Shown piece after piece: positions 609-62,936 of a stretch of 64,000 nt of DNA. Within the stretch, counting starts at the first letter, position 1; each line of letters starts with the position of its first letter. Under the pieces are notes generated by a model that saw nothing but the letters and a program-made list of their open reading frames with translations, had not been told where the DNA came from and searched no databases. Both the position numbers and the translations under genes were made by a program. Source of the stretch: Eledone cirrhosa. Its lineage: Eukaryota. Location of the stretch: positions 109,740,001 to 109,804,000 of the forward strand of contig OZ024743.1 in assembly GCA_964016885.1 (NCBI GenBank), in the 5' to 3' direction.

Positions 609-1195
609 TCTGGGATGGACACATGTTAAACTTGCTCGGTAAGTTTTGTATAAATGTCTTTAAAAATTCGTCATTGTGAACTTATATTTTTCTACCAATT
701 TGTAGAGGGACTGACAGGTCAATTTTTTTATCTGGTCAGTCTCCCAAAATATCGTGCCCCTCAGGGTAAAAACATCCAAAATATTTTCGAAAAAAAATGT
801 ATGCATGCCTACTTGACCAGCAGGTAGTATCAGACATGGACAAAGGAATGCCAACATTATCGCCTCAACATTTAGAAGAGGAATAAGCTTCAGCTGCTTG
901 TAAGCAACTGGACACGCCTGACGTCACAAACGTCACATGTATCCACACACAGAAGGAAGTATGTGTAGCAAACACTAACATCACCACAACCAACAACAAC
1001 AACACAATAAATGAGAAGAACAACAACACAACAAAATAAATCAGTCGCAACACAACGAATGAGACCATCATCACCACCAACAACAAAAATAACAAAATTT
1101 CATTTGCAGCAACAGTTGCTAAGCAACAGGATTTTAAATACTACTCCATGGACATTTCCCAAAAGTCCCAATATTTGTAAGAAGCTTCCAACTAT

Positions 1196-2632
1196 GTGAC
1201 GTTTGAGGGAGACACCCCGCACATACACATACCCCCACTAGTAAGAGAAATGACACAGAAAAAAAAGCTAATTTACAGAACAGTTGACATCATTACCAAA
1301 AAACCCATAACGCTCCCAACAAGCACTATCGAAGCTGCACTAAAATACGTCAAGCCAGACGTGGCATACATCCAAAGAGGTAAACAGTATAGAAGTGTGT
1401 CAGTGCTCTTTAAGAGCAAAATTCTGGCACAACAACACTCGGTTCACCCAATAAAAACGGATCAACACATCTTCCCCACGTACATGGGAAGATGATCCTA
1501 CAAAATAAAAATAACCAGGATCCCAGCAGAGGTCAACATGTGGTCGATCCTACGCTGCATCCTGAAGAAGGATGAGGACACCCTCTTATCTGTAGACAGG
1601 ACAGATCGCCATAACTGGCTTGGAACCTGCATTGAGGTTCTGGTACAAAGGAGGCCAGAGAGAGTTGAGAAAATACTGGACATGATCGTGCTTGAGGAAG
1701 ATGTCATCTCCATTTTAGTGGAGCGGAAAATACCTCAGTGCCATAAGTGTGGGAAAACCACACACTTAAAAGCCATTTGCCCTCTCTTAAACAAACCGAG
1801 GACAAACAAGGTGTTATTACCAACACCAACACCAAAACCCCAACATCAACACTCCCAACCAAACACAACACAAACACCTGCAACATCCACTCCCACATCA
1901 CCAGAGACCAGAGACAACCACACACACAAAATAACACTAAAAAACCCTCCATTACCCCACCCACCCCTGTCAAATACTTCCAAAAATACCTGCACAAACA
2001 CTCCACCACACAACATACCGCTCCCATCTACCCATGATTCAGAAGTCTCAGACACGGGAGCTTCTATATCTCCAAGTGAGAATGAAGAGGAACCCCAAAA
2101 ATCCAAAAAACAAAAAAAGACACTAGAAAGACACAAAATCATCTGCAGAAAACACGCACACACTCAACCCCACCATAAACACACCGCCACAAACGACAAA
2201 CACACCAACAACACAATCACCACCAACACAACCAAACATTTCACCAACAAAACAAACACCACACCACCACAATCACAAACACCAACCACAAAAAGAAAAC
2301 TACAAACAGAAACAGTACACATAAAAAACAAAACACACTACACATACATAAAAACAAAAAACAAAGAACTGGTGGAAACTGTCCGAAAGGACCTCACACT
2401 ACAAACGGAAGGGAAAACCTTCCCCACCAACGACCCACACCCAAACCTCAAACTTATCAGGGTAACAACCCTACAGTATGAAACTTTAAAAGAGAACTTC
2501 CCACATGATGTGGGCCCCCCTTGCCAAAAGCCCCTTAACCGTGTCCTGCTAAAAGGATTCCCTACCTCCCCCAAAACCACCAATCTGGACAGGGAGATCG
2601 AACAACCCGACCTCCAGGAAACGAAAAGTTAA
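1196..2632 (+). pseudogene. Tx1 ORF1 (gag-like, CCHC zinc knuckle, Thr/Pro-rich linker), disrupted
   Basis: CHKCGKTTHLKAIC knuckle; homologous to 12938-13542 (PMYMGRR; CHLCGARDHVRAAC). Confidence 0.8.
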
Positions 2633-2671
2633 GTGTTCCCCCTTTTCTCTCCTTAACTCTTCTTCACCAAC

Positions 2672-5206
2672 ATGGCGACTATACAAGCTGGATATTTGAA
2701 TGTACGTGGCCTTGGAATGTCCTGGAAACAAGGCTAGCTTTTAAATGATCTCAGGTCACATTGTATAGATGTGATAGCCATTACCAAGTCCAGGATTCAC
2801 AACAAGCAGCAGCTAACCCCTATTTTCGATGATTTTTAGATCTACACATCTTTCTGTAGGCCAGGGGTGGGGTGGGGAGTTGCTGTTCTGTTTCGGAAAA
2901 ACTTGGATCTCAAAATACAGACGATTCACTTGGACCCGGAGGCCAGCCTCGTGGTCCTGGACGAGAATGATAGTGAAGCTGGAGCTTTCATACTGGTGGC
3001 CGTATATGCCCCGACTGGTCCATCGCGACCAGAGATCTTCAAGCGTGTGGAGCCATTCCTGGAAACGTCTCGCTCCTTAGTGTTAGTGGTGGACTGGAAT
3101 GGCATCTTAGACGCACGTTGGGAATATGTAGGAGCTTGTGATAATAGAGGGTGGTGTAATAGCCTCAACAATCTCATCAGCAAATTCCAACTGGCTGATA
3201 GATATCGACTAGACTTCCCAATTGCACCACTGTGGACATGGAGCAAGCGCACTGGGTCTTCTAGACCGTATTTAGATAGATTTTTAATTAGACAGAATGA
3301 TAAGGAAACATTAAGCTGTCCACAAATGCACATGGTTGACTATTCAGACAACAAATAAGTCACCTACGTAGTCTACCTAGATAGAACACATAGACAGGGA
3401 CCCTTATACTGGAAGTTAAACATGTCGCTCCCAGCACGTAAGGCCTACAGTAAACGGATTACCACCTTAGTTAAGTGCCAGTTGACGGGGGCGATCGTCA
3501 ACAGCAGATGGTGGAGCTCTCTCTCGAGAGCAATTAGAATAGAATCGATAGCATTTAGCAAGGAAGTAGCTAGCCTTAGAAAAAAACAAAACTAAAAATG
3601 AACTGGTAGCTAAAATAGAAGAGGCACTTAGGAATGGCAGTACAGCTGACGTGCTAGCGGCGAGAACGGCACTAGAACTGGTCTAGTAAAACTGGTTCAA
3701 CCTGAAACACGAAGGTTGTATTGTCAGAAGTAGAGCACGTGCCCTAAGAAACGAGGGAGACAAAGCTGTTAGCTGGGCCCGAGTGGCAGAGGCGAAAAGT
3801 GGCAACAAATCCACAATTCGGTGTTTGCAAGACAAAGATGGACGCATTATACTTGAATCCAAGATATGTGAGCGGATTCCAGCAGCAATTTGCACAACTG
3901 TTCGGGCAAAGCGGTACATCGTGCGAGGTGATGGACTTCAGCTCCTACCTCCACGGCGTACCGCGACTCTCGAGCACGGATGCGGAGAGCTGCGAAATGC
4001 CGATCACATCGGCGGGGGGGGGGGGAATAAAAGATGCCCTAGGCCGCTGCTGGAAACGCAAATCACCCAGTTTAGAGGGTCTACCCTATGAGTTTTACAT
4101 AGGCATGCCAGACTTGTTCTCTGGCGTCCTCAAAGCGGTCTACTGAAACTGGCAGCAGAACGGGAGGATTCCCAGTTCTAGAGGCAAGAGCGTAGTAACG
4201 CTGATCAGGAAAGATGAGAACAAGGGGGATGAGATAAGCAATTTCAGGTCCATAACTCTGCTCAAAACAGAGTTAAAGATTTTGGCGAAGCTGTTAGCAG
4301 CAATGCTGGCGCTTGTCGTCGAGAAGCTGGTAGGGGAAGCCCAAACGTGTGCAATCCCGACCAGGTCCATTCACGACAACCTCCACCTCATGCGATACAT
4401 CATAGAGAGGGTAGGGTGTAAACCTGGCTTTGGTCGAGCTCTGATAAATTTAGATCAATCTAAAGCATTTGATAGGGTCGACTTGGAAGCAGTTCTCAAG
4501 GCGGCCGGCTTCGGTCCTGTCTTCAGAGGCTGGACCGGTGCCATGCACACCAGCATCTGCTCGGCAGTCAAGGTGAATGGCTACCTATCAGAGCCATTCA
4601 AAATCATGCGTTCCATCCGTCAGGGATGCCCTCCTCCTCCATTCTGTATGTACTGACTCTCGAGCCTTACTGCGGAAATTGTTGCAGGGCATCCCGGTCG
4701 AACCAGGAATGCGGAAAGCAGCGTCAGCGTATGCCGACGACATAACCGTAATGGTGTCGAAACCTCGGAAATCAGGGTAACCGCCAATCTATTACAGGAA
4801 TACGAAACGTTGACAGGAGCGAGGCTAAACCCAAACAAGTCTGTCGGTTTGCAACTCGGCACATGGAGAGGTAAACCCATGCCTTCCGACAGTGTCGTTG
4901 GACGTTGGACGGAAGGACCCGTGAAATTGCTCGGGGTCTGGTTCGGTCCAGACCTCCAGGTGGACAAGAACTGGAACAAGGTCACGGCGAAGTTGTTTGC
5001 ACTCACCCAGAAGTGGACTGAGTGCAAACTCTCTTGAAAGGTCGAGCGGAGGTGACAAACACTTACATAGCGCCCGTCATCTACTACCGCTTCGCAGTCG
5101 TATCTTGCCCCCGCGAATACCTTACCAAAATGGAACGCCTACTCTTCAAGTTCCTCTGGAAGAAACAGGCTCCATTGGTGAGGAGATCCATCTGCTGTCA
5201 ACACCC
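2672..5206 (+). pseudogene. Tx1 ORF2 (AP endonuclease + reverse transcriptase), several stops and frameshifts
   Basis: MATIQAGYLNVRGL, VAVYAP, DWN, YLDRFL, YSD (APE); SPSLEGLPYEFY, NFRSITLL, LDQSKAFDRV, IRQGCP, AYADD (RT). Confidence 0.92.
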
Positions 5207-5867
5207 ATATAAAAATAATAATTCAGTGGATGGAATAAGCTAGCGAGGACTAAATTCCGGAGCACTGAAAACATTTTAGTAAGTAAGTTGATTTTTAATT
5301 TTTAAAATTTTCTTATTTTACGTCTTTCATATATTTGTTCTGCATACCCCTGCATAGAACCACATAGGTACTAAGACAACTTATATATTTGCTAGCATGA
5401 GTGTACATCTGTACACATATGTTGGTAGATGTACTAATTCTCTATATTTATCTCCAAATTATTTGTTGAGCAACACTTGCCAAAATTTACTGCTGTATCA
5501 TGGTAGTAGTAGGTTCTTGTCATAATAACACCCCGCTCCTAACTGATTAACCTCAGTGTCACGTGATTGATTCTTTAGAATCTGCCACTGACCAGAGGCA
5601 GTGAAATTTTTTCAGTGCTCCGGAATTTAGTCCTCGCTAGCTTATTCCATCCACTGAATTATTATTTTTATATGGGTTCCTAGTGTCCGCGCATTGCCCG
5701 GGAACTTAGCTGAGAATAGACTCCCTGATGACGTAATGAATTCTCTATAGTTATATTATGTAACTATATTTATCCCATTACAGAAACTAATTAGTTGGAG
5801 TGAAAATTTTAGTAAGTAAGTTGATTTTTAATTTTTAAAATTTTCTTATTTTACGTCTTTCATATAT
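5203..5867 (+). mobile_element. Non-coding HHR-containing unit (533-bp period, terminal direct repeat, 5' inverted segment); PLE pLTR- or retrozyme-like
   Basis: Direct repeat 5273-5334 = 5806-5867; inverted repeat 5203-5271 vs 5609-5677; HHR at 5720-5801. Confidence 0.8.
5720..5801 (+). ncRNA. Type I hammerhead ribozyme with extended stem II
   Basis: ACTCC-CTGATGA-c-GTAATG..(inner hairpin TATAGTTATA/TGTAACTATA)..CATTAC-a-GAAA-CTAATTAG-TT^GGAGT. Confidence 0.82.
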
Positions 5868-6423
5868 ATTGAAAGGAAAACGACCGCCACATAAACCAAA
5901 AAAGAGGTATAAGGATTCCTTGAAAGCCTCTCTGAAAGACGCTAACATCGCTGCTGATACATGGGAGAATATTGCTGCTGATCGTAATAAATGGAGAAAG
6001 ACTGTATATGAGGGAAAAGTTGCCTTTGAGGCATCTCGAATCGCATACGAGAAAGTAAAGCGGGATGTGAGGAAGTGCATTGCTGTTGCACTTCCAGACG
6101 GCGAGGGTCCTCCTATGGTGCTGACATGCAGCGTATGTGCGAGACTCTGCCTAAGCAAAGCTGGACTCGAAAGTCATCTTCGCAGTCATAAAGTAAGACC
6201 AGTGGTTAACTACCAGGCTGCTGTTGGAGATGCTACTCATCATGCCTGCCAAACATGTGGTAGAAAATGTAAATCAGCAGGAGGGCTCTAGCGACATGCA
6301 AAAGTACACGAACTCCAGCCACAGCCGACTATTCCCAGTAAATCTTTTGGTTGCCGACTCTGTGCAAGTCATTTTAGATCATTGGCTGGGCTAAAAAGCC
6401 ACATTCGATCGCAGCGCTGTTAG
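5868..6423 (+). mobile_element. 3' fragment of RTE-clade LINE ORF with three C2H2 zinc fingers
   Basis: GKRPPHKPKKRYKDSLK..WE..AADR.KWR tail typical of RTE; CSVC..H...H, CQTC..(stop)..H, CRLC..H. Confidence 0.8.
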
Positions 6424-6711
6424 TTGCTATCGTGTGTGTGTGTGTGTGTAGATATGCTTATGTGTGTATATATATATGTATATGTATATTATTATTGTTG
6501 TTGTCGTTATTATTATTGTTGTTATTATTATTATTACTATTATTGTTATTAATGTATGTGTGTGTGTATGTGTGTGTGTGTGTGTGTATATATGTGTATG
6601 TGTCTGTGTATGTGTATATATATATATATTTCTTTTTTTTTATTTATTTATTATTATTATTTTTTTTTTCTTTCTCCTCGTGCAATGGCCATACTCGATA
6701 ACGAGAGGGCA

Positions 6712-6742
<31 letters not shown>

Positions 6743-6963
6743 CAATTAAGTTAAAAATGTACATCCATATATGTATACTGAAATACTAGTATGCATATGA
6801 ATACACACACGTATACATATGTAGATTACCAAGTCTTTCACTGGTTACTTTACAGTGAGTATCCAGCTATTCTGTATGTAAACACACAGACAAACCGGTT
6901 TTTAGAGTCATACTGGTTTTTGAGGAAACACCTTTCCTCTATTCTCCAGAAAGCCAGACAAGG

Positions 6964-7008
6964 AATATTGAACTAGTTTCGTTGTTGTTACAACTCATCA
7001 GCAATATT
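6964..7008 (-). ncRNA. Minimal type I hammerhead ribozyme (unit 1)
   Basis: Minus strand: AATATTG-CTGATGA-GTTGT aaca ACAAC-GAAA-CTAG-TT^CAATATT. Confidence 0.9.
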
Positions 7009-7429
7009 TACCTCTCTACCGGCCTTTCTGGAGAATCGTTAAAGAACATATCGTTATATGCTTTTTCTATGAAAATTAGTAGTGGGCAGACTAATTTGCA
7101 TAGAGTGTGAGTACGTACCGGTTCAACGGAGACGATAAAAACAAATAACGAAACGAAATTAAATTTCGTTTCGTTTGAAACTCACTTTTGTATGACTGAC
7201 GCTTAAACAATTAAGTTAAAAATATACATCCATATATGTATACTGAAATACTAGTATGCATATGAATACACACACGTATACATATGTAGATGTACCAAGT
7301 CTTTCACTGGTTACTTTACTGTGAGTATCCAGCTATTCTGTATGTAAACACACAGACAAACCGGTTTTTAGAGTCATACTGGTTTTTGAGGAAACACCTT
7401 TCCTCTATTCTCCAGAAAGCCAGACAAGG

Positions 7430-7474
7430 AATATTGAACTAGTTTCGTTGTTGTTACAACTCATCAGCAATATT
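7430..7474 (-). ncRNA. Minimal type I hammerhead ribozyme (unit 2)
   Basis: Identical to 6964-7008. Confidence 0.9.
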
Positions 7475-7895
7475 TACCTCTCTACCGGCCTTTCTGGAGA
7501 ATCGTAAAAGCACATATCGTTATATGCTTTTTCTATGAAAATTAGTATTGGGCAGACTAATTTGCATAGAGTGTGAGTACGTACCTGTTCAACGGAGACG
7601 ATAAAAACAAATAACGAAACGAAATTAAATTTCGTTTCGTTTGTAACTCACTTTTGTATGACTGACGCTTAAACAATTAAGTTAAAAATGTACATCCATA
7701 TATGTATACTGAAATACTAGTATGCATATGAATACACACACGTATACATATGTAGATGTACCAAGTCTTTCACTGGTTACTTTACTGTGAGTATCCAGCT
7801 ATTCTGTATGTAAACACACAGACAAACCGGTTTTTAGAGTCATACTGGTTTTTGAGGAAACACCTTTCCTCTATTCTCCAGAAAGCCAGACAAGG

Positions 7896-7940
7896 AATAT
7901 TGAACTAGTTTCGTTGTTGTTACAACTCATCAGCAATATT
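7896..7940 (-). ncRNA. Minimal type I hammerhead ribozyme (unit 3)
   Basis: Identical to 6964-7008. Confidence 0.9.
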
Positions 7941-8586
7941 TACCTCTCTACCGGCCTTTCTGGAGAATCGTAAAGGCACATATCGTTATATGCTTTTTCT
8001 ATGAAAATTAGTAGTGGGCAGACTAATTTGCATAGAGTGTGAGTAGGTACCGGTTCAACGGAGACGATAAAAACAAATAACGAAACGAAATTAAATTTCG
8101 TTTCGTTTGTAACTCACTTTTGTATGACTGACGCTTAAACAATTAAGTTAAAAATATACATCCATATATGTATACTGAAATACTAGTATGCATATGAATA
8201 CACACACGTATACATATGTATATGTACATCTACATATGTATACGTGTGTGTATTCATATGCATACTAGTATTTCAGTATACATATGTGGATGTACATTTT
8301 TAACTTAATTGTTTAAGCGTCAGTCATACAAAAGTGAGTTTCAAACGAAACGAAATGTTTACATACAGAATAGCTGGATACTCACAGTAAAGTAACCAGT
8401 GAAAGACTTGGTACATCTACATATGTATACGTGTGTGTATTCATATGCATACTAGTATTTCAGTATACATATATGGATGTACATTTTTAACTTAATTGTT
8501 TAAGCGTCAGTCATACAAAAGTGAGTTACAAACGAAACGAAATTTAATTTCGTTTCGTTATTTGTTTTTATATATATATATATATA

Positions 8587-8749
8587 ACGAAGGAAATGTA
8601 TTAAGGAACCATATGGACCATAACGCACCAAAGTACTCAATACTTAGGGTAGTAGAGTGGGTAATAGGAACGAGTAGGACCCCGACGGCTGAGCTCAAGC
8701 CGTTTCCACGGCTAATTCTGGACTAAACGAAAATGTTTATCCTGGTATA

Positions 8750-8787
<38 letters not shown>

Positions 8788-9121
8788 TAACATTCTCGGT
8801 ATTCTTCTATATTTTTACCCCATATTGTTTTACTTTTTGTTTCGACTTCCTCCCCCTCCCCCTCCCTAGTATACTTCCTTGAACTCCTGCCCTGCTGTAG
8901 TTGGCACTATCAACGCGCGACTGGGTTTCCTCCACCCCTCTCCCGTTTTCTTCTACTGGCAGGTTCAGCTACCCCTTCCTTCCACAAATTGCCATGATAG
9001 AATTATGTGACTCAACAACAGACTTTTGACCAATCCTTTTGACAATCACTTTTACCATATATGGAATTACCCCCTGAGAAGCTCGGCTATTCATATACCA
9101 GGATAAACATGTTCATTTAGT

Positions 9122-9124
<3 letters not shown>
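8587..9124. mobile_element. Rearranged non-coding repeat carrying the two halves of a large HHR
   Basis: 8587-8755 (minus) overlaps in sequence with 9087-9124 (plus); same family at 57905-58046 and 59610-59815. Confidence 0.6.
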
Positions 9125-9155
<31 letters not shown>

Positions 9156-9376
9156 CGAAGTTTAATAAAATTGAAGTTTCGGCTGCAGCCAAGCTAAGAA
9201 AATACAATCAGGAATTATGCATCCAAGCACTCGATGAGCTGTGCTAGGAGTAATAACATACGTTAGATAGCACAAAAATGTGTGGCAGGCAAGCCTAGCC
9301 ACAATACGGAAGCAACGAAAATACTTTTATGTTAAATATATATATATATATTAATTCAAAATATTAAGAAAATAGA

Positions 9377-9443
9377 TATGTTATTACGCATATTTCAGAG
9401 GTACTGGGTTTAGTTCAACAGTACGTCCTCATCAGATAAAATA
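9377..9443 (-). ncRNA. Type I hammerhead ribozyme (GAAATAT family)
   Basis: Minus: TATTTTAT-CTGATGA-GGACGTACTG..CAGTACCTCT-GAAA-TATGCG-TA^ATAACATA; paralog at 61689. Confidence 0.72.
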
Positions 9444-9601
9444 AGATAATGCATGACATACCCTGACATAGTAGATGGTTAAGATTCAGTCATAATTATT
9501 TGATGTATTCATTGAACCTTGTTTAAATTTTAAATATATATATATATATATATATATTAGTTTAGCGAGGTTTTTTTATATGAAATCGTGTGTCGAAACA
9601 G

Positions 9602-9992
9602 ATATTGTTATACTTGGGGAGGGTCATATTTGCGTAATATTGCCAGAATTAATAACAGAACACACTCACTGTTTGGTTGGTTTTCGCTTCTCGCTGTCTT
9701 TTATATCTGCGATCTAACTTACTCGGTCCTCAATGTTGCCATTGACTGACAGACGGTCAAAAATAATACAGATACAATATAGACACAAACACATGTAAAC
9801 TATATATATGTGTTTGTGTCTATATTGTATCTGTATTATTTTTGACCGTCGGTCAGTCAATGGCAACATTGAGGACCAAGTAAGTTAGATCGCAGATATA
9901 AAAGACAGCGAGAAGCGAAAACCAACCAAACAGTGAGTGTGTTCTGTTATTAATTCTGGCAATATTACGCAAATATGACCCTCCCCAAGTAT

Positions 9993-10000
<8 letters not shown>
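9602..10000. repeat. Near-perfect ~190-bp-arm palindrome (fold-back element)
   Basis: 9602-9794 is the reverse complement of 9808-10000 with only a few mismatches. Confidence 0.92.
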
Positions 10001-10031
<31 letters not shown>

Positions 10032-10044
10032 TATATACATATAT

Positions 10045-10365
10045 AAGTTTAAGCAAAGATCGCTGCTTTCACCCTTAACGGGATCTTCTGAAACTAACAA
10101 AGTCAATCTGTGATCGCAGAAGTGAATATTTCACAAAACGTTGCAACCGGAGGAAGACAGGAAGACGATACTTTGATTCGTGGAAACGTTCCCTGGCAAA
10201 GAACGGGAAAAAACGCATATAATACGTCATTATTTAGAGCGGTGAAAAACAATTACACGCAAAGACAGAACCACGTTTTTGCGCTACGGTTCTTATATGT
10301 TTGACATATATTTATCCTTATCGAGCCCTGTTTGGATTTTAGCCTTCAAATGTATTATTATTACT
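10045..10365 (-). mobile_element. Solo PLE pseudo-LTR fragment of the 22166 family, with an oppositely oriented 5'UTR piece
   Basis: 10045-10195 is the reverse complement of about 22256-22406; 10285-10360 matches 22436-22510. Confidence 0.8.
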
Positions 10366-12170
10366 ATATATATATATGGATGTGAACGATATAACCTCTA
10401 TATTTGCGTTCAATTACCTATAAATTTCAGAGTTACCGCGCCGAATTAATATTCAAAGCTGAATTAAGCACGTTGGATAATACTTTCCAACTAACTTTTT
10501 TTTATCAATGCAGGTCGCGTGAATTCCGAATTGCATCCAAGTGAAGAATTTATGGTCTAACAATACATATATATATAAGAAGAAATATCATAGATGAATT
10601 AAACAAACTGCTCATATTTTTGTTTACATAGCTTTCCATTAATACATTATATATTCAAATAAGTTTTTCAATATTCTCAAATATACGTTCAACATAAATA
10701 TCCATATTTAAAAATCTCATTTTTAAACCAACTCAAGAAAGTGAATGCATTAACTTGAAGAATTAATCATCTTCCTTCCTTCCGAAAAACACATTGTGAA
10801 CATGAATAAAGAAACAAGTTATAAATATATTATTTCAATTTTACAAGAGGCAAATTACATAGAATCAGATATAATCCTCCATTAATGTCGATGCATATTA
10901 ATCTCAAATTGAAGCAATTTATATTCTGTTACAATGTCAATGTTCTGCGGAAAAGCAACGGGCATAAACGTTTCTCATTTCTCATCAAGAAACTTAATGA
11001 CAAGCAATTAGAAACTAATATTTCAGTTTTTAATACTTTTTCATTTCAGTAGCGTGACTCGGTATAAATGTAAGACATGTTAAATTCTCTATATAGCAAT
11101 ATATTTCATACAATTTTGAATGACTTATTTCGATAACTTGCGTTACTGATTGACTTACTGAAATATATATTTTTTGTGTGTCCTATAAAAAATTATATAT
11201 CGCCGAAGAGAACGAGAGCAGATGTACAATTGTAATTCGAGGGACACGGTAATGTAAAAATAGTAACATAACAGCGACTCTCCAAATAGTGAAGAAGAAT
11301 TAGACTTGACATTTAGCTAAACAAAACAACAAGAGTATCCACTCAGAATTAATATATTTTATGTAAATACAATATACAAATACAATATGCTAATGTTAAT
11401 TAAATCGTGTACACCCCGAAAGCATACTTTTGTAGACTTATGCTAATTTGAAGCATTATCATATATTTTACATTCACTATAGCTATTACTACAAAAATCC
11501 TTCCGGCGTTTAAATACTTATATATTTTCACATCGGATTCTGTTCTACGGGGAAAGGCTTGCTTACCAAATGTACATTTCATTCACGAAAAGGGGAATAA
11601 AGAAGTATTATCCATATATTCGAGAACCGGTGACATGTTTGCATTTTTGAAATTGTTGATAAATATGGATATAAAAAAAATGTAATAATAATAAAATACA
11701 TAAGCGACAAGGAAATATCTGGCATACGGTGAGGAATGCTATTTCAATTATCCCGATGTTTACTGAAGGTAAGTCCAGTTAGATCATCTAAATAAAGGAT
11801 AGTGCGTCAAAAACTTATAGCTAACGTGTTAATCATTGAATAAAACTGTCAGTTCCAGTTATGGAATAGATTAAGTTATTTTTTTCTGAAAATTGAACGA
11901 AAATACACAGCTCACAATAAATCAAGCAGCACTAAATCTTAACTACCAAATTTTACATTCTCAACCTGGATTTTATACTGAATGTTGACATAAAATCTTA
12001 AATTGTTTGTCCGTATCTGGTTTTAGGCTCCAAGAAACAATAGTTGAAATTCCAATTCCATGTTTCAACTTAATTGTTCCCAATTACTAATGTATATGCG
12101 TACACACCTACACACATGTGTGTACACACCATGTGTACACACCATGTGTACACACCTACACACATGAGTG

Positions 12171-16258
<4,088 letters not shown>

Positions 16259-16273
16259 ATGTATCTATATATC

Positions 16274-16365
<92 letters not shown>

Positions 16366-17233: not shown

Positions 17234-18408
17234 GATGGGTACAAAAGTCGCTCCAACTTATGCCAACTCATTCATGGCATACTTGGAAGTCCAGATATAT
17301 GAACAGTCCAAATCAAAATACGAATTGAACTTCCCCAAATATTTATCAGAGATTTGGAAACGCTACTTTATGATTGTCTCATTCTTTGGTCTCACACACA
17401 CGATTAACTAAATGATATCAAACATTTAATTAACGGCATCAATAACCACACCCAATTCTCAATGGAATATAACGAAAATCAACTCCTCTTTCTGGACATC
17501 TTAATCATAAAAAAGTCACAAATATTGAAAGTGACATACACAACAAACCAACAGATTCCAAACAATACCTGCTATTCACCTCCAACCATCCAAAGCACAC
17601 GAAGATAAACATCACTTTTAATCTAGCAAGAAGAATTTGCACAATTGTCTCCAATTATGAAACGCGAATAATAGACTTCAAGAATTAAAGAAAATTCTAC
17701 TCGAAAGACAGTACCCACCATTACTAATAAATAAGGGAATAGAAAGGGCTAAAGTATTAGGCATTGACGAATTACGAAAACAGAAACAAATTCAAGGTAC
17801 GTCCAATATTCTATCATATGTCTCAACACAACCCAGGAAATGCGGAAGCTTACAACACTATTCACAACATCCCACTATTGAAACAAGACCTAAGAATGAA
17901 AAAAGCCCTTGAAGCACACACAATAATCAAAAGCAAAAGACAACCAAAATCACTGAAAACATTACTCACCAATGCCAAATTACCTACCACAAACAAACAA
18001 CCAACTGTCAAAAAATGTGGTCGCTCCAATTGTGGAATCTGCACTCACCTCATTGAAGGTAACACGTATACATTTGAATCAGGACAAAATTTTGCTGTAA
18101 AAAATCACTTCACTTGCTCATCAAAAAATCTAGTTCATGCCATTAGATGTAAAGGATGCAATGAAGATTATATAGGACAAACTAACCTCACACTCAGAAA
18201 CAGAATGACAGTTCATCGCCAACAATTACGAGATCCGACCACTAGACAGTTACCACTAAGTGCACAACTAGACATATGCGCAAGTAATAAGACACCCAAA
18301 TTCCAAGTCTTCCCATATTATGTTTTCGCTGACAATACATCAGAACAAATACGAATAAATTAGGAAAATATGTTTATTAAAAAATATAGACCAGCATTAA
18401 ATATAGTT
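17234..18408 (+). pseudogene. PLE RT C-terminal half + GIY-YIG endonuclease, frameshifted
   Basis: ORFs 17139-17411 and 17764-18363; homologous to 50595-51894. Confidence 0.88.
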
Positions 18409-19410: not shown

Positions 19411-20143
19411 GCACACCAGCACACGAATAAACATACATATCTCTACTTTCTTTATTTCAATAGAAAGTCTGAATTTTGATACCCACCACACCAGCCATAT
19501 TCACTGAACCAGAACAATTCTCCTCATCCCGTTTTTCTCGTATATTATCTTTTGTTTGGCACACAATTCTCTAAAAGGTTATAAAACAAATTCCAAAATA
19601 CGGGCGTGAAATTTAATGTACTTGTTCACGTAACAGTCATAATTACATTTATAACCAATCAAATTACATTTATATAAAAAAGACTTCGTGAGCCACCTTT
19701 TTTAAGTAAAAATAAATTCAAACACAAAGCATATACAAACATAAATTCAAACACTGGCGCGAAAGGTGATGTGCTTATTCACGTGACTGCATCAACCAAC
19801 CAAACTTCACTCATATATGAAAAAACAACCTGAGCTGCTGCCGCCCTTTTTTGAAGGCAAATATAATACGAACTTTGTAACGCGAACATGCGCGAAATGT
19901 ATTATACTTATTCAACAACCAACCAAATTACTTCTCTAAAAACCTAGCATTTCGAGCCACTTTTTTCCATACAAAACAGAAGCAACATTCAAGCACCAAC
20001 CAGATGTAAGAAAAATCACAAAACCTCCATCCCAATTCTACTTTTGAAATGCAAAGAACTACGAAAACGGTAAAGGAACCAAATAATTTTTTTTTTTTTT
20101 TATGAAAAAAGACTCCAGTTCCATTTTCGATTTCATGTTTTTT

Positions 20144-20190
<47 letters not shown>

Positions 20191-20821
20191 ATCGAAAATG
20201 CAAATGGAGTCTTTTTTTCATACAAATATATATTTATCTGGTTCCTTTAGCGGTTTCGCAGTTCTTCTGCTTTTTAAAAGTAGAATTGAGATGTAGGGCT
20301 TGTGGTTTTTCTCACATCTGGTTGGTGTTTGAATGTTACTAATGTTTTATATGGAAAAAAGTTGCTCGAAATGCTAGGTTTTTAGAGAAGTAATTTTGTT
20401 GGTTGGTGAATAAGTATAAATTTCGTGCCAGTTTGCGTTAAAAAGTTCTTTTAAATGTATGGCTATCATGCTTTTCAATAAAAAACCGACGTTCTTATCA
20501 ACAATTATACAAATTTAAAATATCTAAAGGAAAGAGAAAAAAGGCATAAGCTATTTGAGGAACACACACTATTTTGTTCACACATATAGTATGATCCAAA
20601 GAATGAATCAAAACATTCGATTATCAACCTAGATTTTGGTAAAGCAACCAAGTCAATTTCTACTCAGTTGTGTGGATAGTTTTAATATCTCTCTCACATT
20701 GTACATAACATTATGTATTAGTTTAGAGGAGGGATATAACATCCCCACATGTTGAAAATATAAACGTTTGACAGCAACTGTAAATCTAATTAGAACAGAG
20801 CTTTATAGTCCTCTGCTGTTT

Positions 20822-26463: not shown

Positions 26464-26810
26464 TACATACAGGTACACATACATATATGCACGTATCAGT
26501 TTAGCGGACGCTTATTATAACGCCGCTTTGTTCATTTGTAAACAAACTGAACAGCCTGAATGTTATGCCGTACGGTGTTAAGGCAACCACGTCACCTTTT
26601 TGTTCAACACTGACACAGGAACGATGTACTAGTTTCAAGCTTGTTAGCTATCATCAGCACCGTATACCCATCTGCCAGATAGTTGAACGTTCGAAAGTAT
26701 ATACTTTCCTTATGAAAATTAACGGCTGAGCAGCCTAATTTGCATACCGAGTGAGTTATGTCGGTCAGGCATACCGAGACCGATAAGTTGAAATAAAATG
26801 AAAACGAAAT
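26301..26810 (-). mobile_element. Single 482-bp retrozyme-like monomer with 28-bp terminal redundancy
   Basis: ATAAGTTGAAATAAAATGAAAACGAAAT at 26301 and 26783; contains HHR and octamer; distantly related to the 466-bp repeat. Confidence 0.82.
26621..26663 (-). ncRNA. Minimal type I hammerhead ribozyme
   Basis: Minus: ACGGTG-CTGATGA-tAGCT aaca AGCTt-GAAA-CTAG-TA^CATCGT. Confidence 0.85.
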
Positions 26811-35083: not shown

Positions 35084-35146
<63 letters not shown>

Positions 35147-35149
35147 AAA

Positions 35150-35514
35150 ATAATGAAATGAGATTTCATTTCTCACTCTTAGTACGGCTCATACTTAAAT
35201 GTAAGGATGTATACGTACATACATATACGTATACATACGTACAGTAGCATGTATATATATACATGCATGCACATATATATATATATATATATATGTACGT
35301 ACGTGTTTACCGAACATTTATTATAATATTTGGGTTGTTTGTAGACAAACAGCCCGAATTAAGTCGTACAGTGTTCGGCAACCATCGTCGCCCTTTTGAG
35401 CGACGATGGTTGCCCGTTTGGGCAACGATTGTTGCCGAACACTGTACGGCTTAATTCGGGCTGTTTGTTTACAAACAAAATGAACATTATAATAAATGTT
35501 TGGTAAACCCATAC

Positions 35515-35579
<65 letters not shown>

Positions 35580-35645
35580 CATGTATGTATCTATATACAC
35601 AGTACTGTACGCCTGTATACATATATGTATGTACGTATACATACT

Positions 35646-35650
<5 letters not shown>
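35150..35650. repeat. Fold-back of two partial units of the 26301 family
   Basis: About 35296-35392 is inverted against 35424-35520, with nested short palindromes at the centre. Confidence 0.8.
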
Positions 35651-35713
<63 letters not shown>

Positions 35714-35826: not shown

Positions 35827-35891
35827 TAGTTTGTCTGATGAAGGCATACTATAATGTAACTTGGTATCCTTGAAATATATATAATGAAATA
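35827..35891 (+). ncRNA. Type I HHR (GAAATAT family), weak stem I
   Basis: CTGATGA-AGGcATAC..GTATCCTT-GAAA-TATATA-TA; flanks homologous to 25350-25460 in reverse. Confidence 0.6.
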
Positions 35892-49590: not shown

Positions 49591-52040
<2,450 letters not shown>

Positions 52041-52710
52041 GTGGGTACAGGTGTGTATGTGTAGATATAGATATGTATGGATATGTGTAAATATGATTAT
52101 GTGCACATGTGTAAATGTGTATTTAGTTTTGCATCCATTTGTGCGTATGTATATTTATGGTTGGATATCAATATAATTGTACCTCTCTCTATATATAGTG
52201 TGGATATATGCACTTTGTAATCTATGAAATGTATATGTTTTAACTATGCCAACATGTATTTATCTTAGTTTGATTATTTATACATAAACATACTTGATAG
52301 TATTTTAGAGCGTATCATATGCTGTATTATACACCGTACTATATTGTGTTGGTTATGTTGTATAATATCGCATTACTGCATTTAATTATCTTATTATAAT
52401 TTGCATCTTTTAATATACTATCTTTCCTAGGCATAACCTTAATCTATATTCAGCTTAAAACTCAATACAACACGAATCACCATTTACTTTTACATTCCTT
52501 TTAAACTTCACTATACCAGATACATTCAACTATCAGTTTTTGACAATCCCTTTCCTCCTAATTGATTGTTATGCCAATTCTACTATTAACACCATTCAAC
52601 TATTCCTTTCAAAGGTCATGACCTCCACTAATGTGTATTACTTTTCATCTTAACACCATATGAAAAAAACAATTTGATTGGTTAGTTCTTCAACTACCTC
52701 CAAATAAGGA

Positions 52711-59815: not shown

Positions 59816-59869
<54 letters not shown>

Positions 59870-59872
<3 letters not shown>

Positions 59873-61900
59873 TCAAAATATTAACAAAATAGATATTCTT
59901 GAACAAGAGAAACACATATAATACATACAATAATGCTATAATTGTAGTTTTACCTCCAGTTCAGTGGAGCGAGAGACCAATATTTGTCGACTATTATGGT
60001 TTGTTATATTTATATTTAGATATATATAAAATATATAAGTGCAAATCTAACTTTCTGAGTCCCCAAAACATACCCAAAAATGAGTAAAATATGCAAATGC
60101 ATGAATGATCTACAGTTCAATTATAACCGGTAAATTTACAAGTTAAATATCCAAATTATATATATAAAACAGAGACAGATAAATAAATGTGTTGGGGACC
60201 AGAAAGTTAGATTTGCACTTATATATTTTATATATATCTAGGTATAAATATAACAACCCATAATAGTCGACACATATTGGTCTCACTCTCCATAGAACTG
60301 GAGGTAAAACTACAATTATAGCATTACTAATAATGATTATAATTATTTATTTATTAAATGTATATCGTTTCATTAATACCTATGATAATATCGCTATATA
60401 GTTGTACAAATATGTTTATCTAGTGTAATAACATTATCGTAGTTACATTTATAAATAATTTAGATACTCAAATTACTCTCTATTGTTATAAGTGTTAGAT
60501 ATTCTCTGGAAGTTCGAATTTATATAATGATTATTACTTAATTTAATATTATTTAGCTCCTCTTCTATCACATTCGATGGATATTTTAGAAGTATCTTTT
60601 GTCTACTATATATTAAGACCCTATTACATTTTATACTATATTTTTGAATATTGGGCATTTTTAAGTTTCGCAAACAATTCATTATTTTTCACTTGTTATC
60701 TTTATATTTATTTTGTATCTATCCCCTATCCTTAGGAATCATGTAGTTTTGACTTATATAGTTATAGTATATATCAACTAAATGACCATTTCACAATAAT
60801 TGATATAAAACATTAATTTTTAACAATATTTTTTAACAGTATTTTCAGTAACTTTTTTACTATATTGTATTATTGTATTATGTTATATATATATTTGAAA
60901 GGTATCACCTTAAGTCTTTAGACATTATAATCTTACTGTATTTTTTGATTAACACATATATATATAATAAAAAATTCAGACTTCTTTAAGTTTAATTATA
61001 AGGCACTCAAACTGTAAATCATAAATTCTTTAATAATTATAACTATAATTATTTTATAAATTATATTATATAAACTGTTATCAATATTATAAATAATTTT
61101 GGTAAGGATTACCTCGTGAGGGTATAAAAGCATTATATATTTTCTTTCTAGTGTTTCGTAAATTCTTTAAATTTGATTTCATAACATTTGAATTTTAGAA
61201 ATTAAACTTCATAGTATAATATAATATTAATACAGATACCTATTAACTTTTAAAACCTAAAATATTACTCATTACTCTGAAATAACTTAAATTAAATATT
61301 TTGAATATTAACGGTCAACCAAATAAGTTTCAGCTATATATTGCATATATGGATAATTGTCTATTAACTTGAACATAAATTATTACCTTTTGTCTTTCTC
61401 TCTCTTTTTAATCATCTCTCATTTATTTTATTTTTCGAGGCGCCTACTAACTATAATATCCCATCAGCTGTTTATTCCTCTATGCTTTCCTTTCTTTTCT
61501 CTTTTTTCAGTAGTTTAAAAAAAAATTGATTACTGTTATATTGATGCCATGTATTTTTTAAGCTGTATTACACATTTATTGTTTTATATGTGTTTCTCAT
61601 GTTCGCAATATTATAACTATTGAGTTTTATCATATATTACTCACTACCATCACTGAATCGTAACCATCTACTATGTCATGCATCATCTTATTTTATCTGA
61701 TGAGGACGTACTGTTGAACTTAACTCAGTACCTCTGAAATATGTATAATAAAATATACTTGATCACAAGAATATCTATTTTTTTAATAATTTGAATTAAA
61801 ATTAATAACTCTGGAAAACCTTTTTAACTTTTGAGTGCATCCAATCTATTGTAAAACTCATTCTTTGATATATTCATTGAACCTTGTTTAACTTTTAAAT
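59870..61900. mobile_element. Highly decayed PLE-derived element with internal inverted repeat and HHR
   Basis: 59933-60072 is inverted against 60188-60327; minus-strand KYPSNVIEEELNNI (PLE thumb-like); ends homologous to 9352-9535. Confidence 0.5.
61689..61755 (+). ncRNA. Type I HHR (GAAATAT family)
   Basis: TATTTTAT-CTGATGA-GGACGTACTG..CAGTACCTCT-GAAA-TATGTA-TA^ATAAAATA. Confidence 0.78.
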
Positions 61901-62870: not shown

Positions 62871-62936
62871 TATTTTATCTGATGAGGGCGTGCTGAAAAA
62901 ACAGTACAGTATCTCCGAAATATATATAATAAAACA
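62871..62936 (+). ncRNA. Type I HHR (GAAATAT family)
   Basis: TTTTAT-CTGATGA-GGGcGTGCTG..CAGTATCTCC-GAAA-TATATA-TA^ATAAAA. Confidence 0.72.

Follow-up and report, generated by a model that had tools for sequence, protein, structure and literature searches.

A short non-coding repeat with a hammerhead motif interrupts a LINE near the start of the window, the stretch of 64,000 nucleotides of Eledone cirrhosa DNA analysed here. The locus raises the question of which kind of element this unit is and which machinery brought it into the LINE. We consider the unit a dispersed copy of a multi-copy, non-coding hammerhead retrozyme, likely reverse-transcribed in trans by a Penelope-like element (PLE), and assign this reading a probability of about 0.8. 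The unit would then be one more animal retrozyme family, of a kind already on record from many animals.

The unit interrupts a Tx1-like LINE

The target is a degenerate L1-group (Tx1-like) LINE on the forward strand (610-5206). It carries an ORF1 with a CCHC knuckle, APE motifs and a reverse transcriptase (RT) domain (RVT_1, E 2e-10; best PDB match L1 ORF2p, E 1e-10) together with many stops, and its database relatives are mostly from Mollusca. The clade names Tx1 and RTE, the latter for the downstream neighbour of the unit, are assigned from sequence motifs and not taken from an RT tree. A second copy of the LINE in the window continues as ..GGLGMP from the position at which the first one breaks off, and the LINE also runs on as ..GGLGMP at the loose ends found at 5206 in all four sequencing runs examined. 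Position 5206 is therefore a true break point, as had been proposed in the preliminary description of this locus. A search of 5207-12170 for the 3′ part of the LINE (about 1.1 kb) resulted in one 23-nt microsatellite-like match and no tblastx match, indicating that the insertion has no target-site duplication (TSD) and that the 3′ part of the LINE is gone. The interrupted LINE sits in a series of related copies with (TATC)n between them: the L1-group (Tx1-like) copies at 1-540, 610-5206 and 12271-16300 are 75-87% alike and bounded by (TATC)n or similar tracts, an apparent case of microsatellite targeting.

Anatomy of the insertion

Self-comparison of the sequence revealed one full 533-nt non-coding monomer (5273-5805, forward strand, GC 34.7%) with a 62-bp terminal redundancy. 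The two copies of this redundancy (5273-5334 and 5806-5867, both on the forward strand) are identical at 62/62 positions with a spacing of 533, and the locus holds 1.12 units with one complete hammerhead. Upstream, the unit is preceded by an inverted copy of its own positions 5609-5677 (5203-5271, reverse strand), which is a perfect reverse complement over 69 nt (69/69) and extends to 74 nt with one mismatch. The outer joint falls on ACCC (5203-5206, forward strand), which is part of both the LINE reading frame (..CCQHP) and the inverted piece and is found once in the reverse complement of the unit; this 4-nt microhomology between target and inverted piece is the likely second priming site. 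The inner junction (5266-5276, forward strand) shows a TGAAAA microhomology with unit positions 5801-5806, which lie +5 to +10 past the predicted ribozyme cut, and an extra C at 5272. At the downstream end, (AT)4 (5862-5869, forward strand) is the remnant of the (AT)n flank of the family. The 533-bp period with its 62-bp direct repeat, the 69-bp inverted internal copy and the ACCC overlap at the LINE joint were thus all described correctly beforehand. The 62-bp and the 69-bp pairs are free of differences (131 paired positions), which points to a young insertion, with the LINE being much older.

A type I hammerhead variant with an extended stem II

The unit contains a type I hammerhead variant (5720-5801, forward strand) with a predicted cut at 5796|5797. 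It consists of a 5-bp stem I, the CUGAUGA box (5725-5731), a 6-bp stem II (5733-5738/5776-5781), GAAA (5783-5786), GUU (5794-5796) and a stem III formed by the 10-nt palindrome at 5786-5795, the latter one in agreement with the earlier account; a distal stem I (5709-5715/5807-5813, forward strand) can form in addition. A strict descriptor, with criteria set after seeing the motif, matched once in the window and in none of 100 doublet-shuffled windows. Folding z-scores were -2.9 for the 82-nt motif and -4.95 for the unit. No Rfam hammerhead model matched 5720-5801 in a local scan (E<=10), and in the Rfam scan of the window the motif had no hammerhead match among the 150 of 197 matches listed.

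The motif had been called canonical, a label that we cannot support. C5732 and A5782 are unpaired and opposed at the base of stem II, one on each side of the G10.1-C11.1 pair, H17 is a U, the weakest NUH base for hammerheads, and the 6 bp of stem II lead into a 37-nt extension (5739-5775, forward strand), whereas a canonical hammerhead has G10.1-C11.1 right next to the core boxes and a helix II of 4 bp closed by a terminal loop. The additional 10-bp hairpin reported for stem II is indeed present, but as a continuation of the stem through a 7x7 internal loop into a hairpin of 9-10 bp and not as a separate branch. The axolotl HHR_Amex2 likewise has mismatched bases (U-U) at the foot of helix II, and mismatches at this position are known in hammerheads (PMC3088659, PMC7229834). 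The hammerhead variants described for PLEs resemble the motif in their 5-bp helix I, longer helix II, palindromic helix III suiting a dimer, unpaired base between positions 9 and 10.1 and G10.1-C11.1 pair (PMC4209133). In contrast to the consensus given in that source, the motif has a second unpaired base (A5782) before GAAA, a helix III lengthened by the 10-nt palindrome and a possible distal stem I. Compared to the metazoan retrozymes described, loop II is replaced by the 37-nt internal loop and hairpin, and the TSD is lacking.

For the monomer, the inactive form is predicted to be lowest in energy (-24.0 vs -21.0 kcal/mol for the active fold), and a double-hammerhead fold of two copies is predicted at -55.0 vs -48.0 kcal/mol for two monomers. 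Aligned locally to the six other hammerhead regions in the window, the motif gave scores of 21-26, which were equalled by 9 to 136 of 200 shuffles, in line with the earlier claim that it is unrelated to the other hammerhead families here.

The unit occurs in a family in public sequencing data

Parts of the window were found in 13 run entries from 9 studies. We examined 4 of the 16 listed runs, namely X1 and X14 from organism A, X4 from organism B and X7 from organism D, with 3340 contigs, 23,704 reads, 117 contigs and 6 contigs aligned, respectively, LINE flanks included. The comparisons below cover 40 of 247 substitutions, 12 of 37 indels, 24 of 464 loose ends and 24 of 3485 pieces. The unit itself is covered at depth in X1, X14 and X4; organism A, in contigs as well as raw reads, and organism B have it in many variant records, and organism D has it in two informative contigs. 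Record 20 of X7 (organism D, 392 nt) joins 5656-5810 to 5282-5473 head-to-tail with a period of about 529 and extends 139 nt beyond the end of the window copy into the next unit, being the sole tandem contig and of low depth (2.4). A joint in X1 (5817->5300) is ambiguous as a tandem junction. A 39-nt match of X7 record 19 at 5269-5307 was discarded as a likely AT-rich chance match. Among the loose ends listed, 38 X1 contigs diverge at 5869 into (AT)n; therefore, the window copy ends at the usual 3′ end of the family, 66-71 nt past the cut. For comparison, 17% of random points in the window have (AT)n within 70 nt.

The unit holds 32 of the 40 substitutions listed (from 247), and none of those listed falls in the core or in stems I and III (5720-5733, 5781-5801). 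By hand estimate, the chance of finding 0/32 in these 35 core positions is about 0.14 for the 40 of 247 listed, so that conservation of the hammerhead core in the family is weakly shown. The substitutions listed within the motif (5746, 5759 and 5777) are all in stem II or its extension and each breaks a predicted pair (3/3); the deletions at 5737 and 5740 fall in the same region (12 of 37 indels listed), and no compensatory change in the stem II extension was present among the listed variants. The stem II insert is covered without gaps, at unchanged length, by X7 records 20 and 21, X4 record 16 and X1 record 8. As the length is kept in three organisms, the extension is characteristic of the family, with its sequence loosely kept. 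With respect to the predicted fold of the unit, 9 of the 32 listed variant sites are unpaired, 8 keep a pair and 15 break one, with two of the 15 forming one possible compensatory pair (5365/5866). By this tally, the predicted fold is without general support from covariation.

A diverged subfamily, which includes X7 record 21, has 5551-5587 and 5682-5784 in common with the unit. The first of these blocks (forward strand) contains a CACGTG E-box and is kept although its flanks differ, with loose ends at 5551 and 5587 in X14, X4 and X7; the upstream one is common to 738 X14 reads and to one contig each in X4 and X7. The block might be a promoter or a protein site, or the mark of an autonomous partner. 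A pattern scan for relatives of the motif yielded none in metagenome_contigs and none in viral_contigs, both of which are poor in animal DNA.

Classification of the unit

The multi-copy occurrence, the head-to-tail junction and the common 3′ end running into (AT)n together argue for a non-autonomous non-LTR retrozyme with a Penelope-type footprint. Features by which retrozymes are recognised are a type I hammerhead (here as a variant), a head-to-tail repeat, a non-coding sequence and a GC content below 50%, all of which we observed. The longest ATG-initiated ORF in the unit has 42 aa, and the ATG inside CUGAUGA is directly followed by a stop. Judged by the features tested, all at sequence level, the unit is a member of the metazoan non-LTR retrozymes, present here as a dispersed copy of a monomer plus tail. 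These likewise have non-coding, AT-rich and self-paired units that span a few hundred bases and carry one type I hammerhead (PMC7229834); they appear in head-to-tail form and as dispersed monomers in genomes that also harbour PLEs (PMC7229834; bioRxiv 10.64898/2026.07.22.740005). With 533 nt, the unit is above the 150-450 bp given in PMC7229834 and inside the 51-972 bp of bioRxiv 10.64898/2026.07.22.740005. Two or more consecutive units with complete hammerheads, which Li et al. call active, are absent from the locus. With one complete hammerhead, the window copy is a monomer derivative in their scheme.

The preliminary description had left open a second identity, a solo pLTR. The unit would then be the pLTR of an autonomous PLE whose ORF was lost, and the 533 period a local deletion product. 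PLE pLTRs do carry such hammerhead variants (PMC4209133), Xenopus retrozymes are homologous to pLTRs (bioRxiv 10.64898/2026.07.22.740005), and the autonomous partner might be represented by the diverged subfamily that has 5551-5587 and 5682-5784 in common with the unit. We nevertheless regard this origin as improbable: the period comprises the whole 533-nt non-coding unit and recurs at nearly equal length (about 529) in organism D (X7 record 20), not as a coding element of about 3 kb, no ATG-initiated ORF exceeds the 42 aa mentioned above, and the PLE ORF regions of the window gave no match to the unit.

Published work already covers type I hammerheads in tandem repeats, inverted 5′ copies, (TA)n targets and TSD-less microhomology joints in LINEs. 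Our literature search returned no description of cephalopod retrozyme families, and other PLE-hammerhead literature may hold similar variants.

Penelope-type traits of the insertion and competing machineries

Two signs at the insertion are of the PLE type: the inverted 5′ copy adjoins the direct copy, and the common internal 3′ end lies next to (AT)n. EN+ PLEs typically show inverted 5′ copies, tails and a (TA)n bias (PMC8557442). In Adineta, a Penelope element sits inside a LINE without a TSD and is joined by microhomology, and inverted pLTRs overlap the direct one by 15 bp (PMC3846280). The insertion studied here resembles these cases in an inverted 5′ copy that overlaps its direct counterpart by a few bases and in the (TA)n bias (PMC8557442; PMC3846280) as well as in the microhomology joint inside a LINE without a TSD (PMC3846280); it differs from EN+ PLEs in having no ORF. 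PLEs have been put forward as likely helpers of type I hammerhead tandem repeats (PMC7229834; bioRxiv 10.64898/2026.07.22.740005). A Neptune-type PLE fragment in the window (50595-52154, reverse strand), with RT, a Cx4Cx2C linker and GIY-YIG (E 1e-8), has no sequence in common with the unit, and no helper ORF in the window is linked to the unit by sequence. Taken together, the copies in three organisms, the head-to-tail junction, the common 3′ end with (AT)n and the 5′ inversion with microhomology bear out the earlier proposal of an independent retrozyme family with a PLE integration signature.

The inversion by itself is not specific to PLEs, as the L1 machinery also produces inversions of the twin-priming type (PMC2837659). 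An L1/Tx1-type protein could have mobilised the RNA, with the inversion resulting from twin priming or from endonuclease-independent break repair with deletion. Microhomology at both junctions, the internal gap and the target loss fit L1 twin priming (PMC2837659), and L1-group LINEs are abundant in the window. The insertion lacks a poly(A) tail and a TSD, though, and has (AT)n flanks instead; the start of reverse transcription is internal, in non-A sequence, and common to copies; and like inversions are found at other hammerhead and PLE elements of the window. We therefore hold an L1-type origin to be very unlikely.

An origin in one event with the downstream neighbour has to be weighed as well. 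The unit is followed by a 5′-cut 3′ fragment of an APE-RT LINE (RTE-like; 5870-6718, forward strand), a neighbour and not part of the unit, which carries C2H2 fingers and then (AT)12. It corresponds to the C-terminus of an APE+RT LINE (three matches, the best with 1050 aa and PF03372/PF14529/PF00078, E 6e-17). The adjoining 3′ fragment reported previously is thereby substantiated as to its LINE origin. Reverse transcription might have begun on an RTE-like RNA and switched template to the retrozyme RNA, making the unit and the fragment one chimeric insertion, and the fragment is in fact 5′-cut exactly at the unit end (5867-5872). Yet the unit ends where the family usually ends, followed by (AT)n in 38 contigs, with no unit-RTE joint among the rows listed; the RTE piece has an (AT)n tract at either end, as a separate insertion into a microsatellite would have; and the LINE is not resumed after the RTE end. 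RTE-like relatives in organisms B and D (X4, X7) continue upstream of 5872, which shows that the piece is 5′-cut and, on the rows listed, not a regular companion of the unit. A chimeric insertion thus has very little probability. Within 5870-6420, the RTE-like C-terminus contains about three C2H2 zinc-finger-like repeats.

Proposed route of insertion and position of the 5′ break points

For the retrozyme, the following route by a PLE may be envisaged. A longer-than-unit transcript or a circle would be bound by a PLE RT/GIY-YIG protein, which would nick AT-rich DNA, and cDNA synthesis would begin at an internal position of the RNA, about 66-71 nt downstream of the ribozyme cut. The RT would then copy one uncut hammerhead and one whole monomer, giving rise to the 62-bp redundancy, and halt 5-10 nt before the preceding cut site is reached. 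With its ACCC end, the other target strand might prime on GGGU at 5674-5677 and copy 69 nt in the opposite direction, before the two cDNAs join at TGAAAA. A comparable start inside the RNA, downstream of the hammerhead and at AT-rich nicks, was observed in vitro for the anole element PAc (PMC11167929); its distance from the hammerhead is 85-92 nt by subtraction from the figures in that source, compared to 66-71 here.

The forward copy starts 5-10 nt past the predicted cut, and exactly one ribozyme was accordingly skipped by the inversion: on a multimeric template, the gap between the inverted and the forward piece (5678-5800) is the upstream ribozyme domain. If stops were spread evenly, about 2% of them would fall 10 nt or less from the cut; the register was noticed post hoc. 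One X1 contig has an opposite-strand joint at 5382/5805 (+9), which would fit another copy with the same register, its orientation not being given. A stall at the stem I helix would account for the start register as well as cleavage would. We also considered a transcription start around 5604-5609 as the point where the inverted piece ends; this idea is unsupported because the other inversion-like joint ends at 5382.

A predicted anti-ribozyme segment

A segment upstream of the hammerhead (5535-5549, forward strand) is predicted to pair with 5787-5801. The predicted duplex has -15.6 kcal/mol, a value that 2 of 1000 shuffles reach. Within the full monomer and the circle, this helix has a predicted probability of 0.94-0.95 and stem I one of 0.01. 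Predicted folds starting at 5560, 5604, 5660 or 5705 gave stem I probabilities of 0.77-1.0, and those from 5500 and 5690 gave 0.64 and 0.12. Two common variants lie in the segment, one at 5535 that strengthens the pairing and one at 5541 that breaks the pair with U17. According to these models, the segment would pair with the ribozyme and lock it in the full monomer. The ribozyme is thus predicted to be weak as a monomer, to work as a double hammerhead via the palindrome, and to be masked by 5535-5549 in the full monomer. The ribozyme block predicted here for the circle has counterparts in plant retrozymes, in viroids and in some circles of mussels according to PMC7229834, which does not report it for the majority of those from animals.

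Both features can be combined in a tentative scheme, to which we give a low probability. The cut by the first ribozyme would define the template's 5′ end, which would place the first-strand cDNA stop 5-10 nt from that cut and make the inversion leave out precisely the ribozyme domain, and the antisense segment 5535-5549 would lock the next ribozyme, so that the RT copies through it and generates the redundancy. PAc behaves differently in vitro: the hammerhead is dispensable for insertion (PMC11167929), and that study describes uncut RNA as the main substrate and no RNA ends at the cut site, whereas the forward copy here begins at the cut site. Of nine dimers of Xenopus retrozymes, eight showed no cleavage in vitro (bioRxiv 10.64898/2026.07.22.740005). 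Should the 5′ break points of the family pile up at the cut site and cleavage be gated by the antisense segment, this family would provide a countable genomic test of self-cleaved RNA as the real template.

Other hammerhead, PLE and palindromic sequences in the window

Beyond the RTE-like piece, a 466-bp tandem array (6739-8571, reverse strand) adjoins its (AT)12 and contains three complete type I hammerheads ending in GUU (Rfam HH9, E 5e-5, below gathering), with nested inversions at 8226-8571. Five further type I hammerhead-like motifs are located at 9381-9439 and 26621-26663 (both reverse strand) and at 35830-35888, 61689-61755 and 62873-62934 (all forward strand), in each of which the basal pair of stem II is weak or mismatched; the regions 9376-9493 and 61649-61756 match at 85%. 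An (AT)n tract lies beside 7/7 hammerheads of the window (34-229 nt away), a signal to which we give no weight, since such a tract is found within 230 nt of 35% of random points. PLE fragments with GIY-YIG are present at 50595-52154 (reverse strand, one stop) and 17480-18360 (forward strand) and are 65% alike. A 399-bp near-perfect palindrome (97%) at 9602-10000 has (AT)n tracts on either side, and long inverted repeats occur at 19870-20448, 35085-35712 and 59834-60422.
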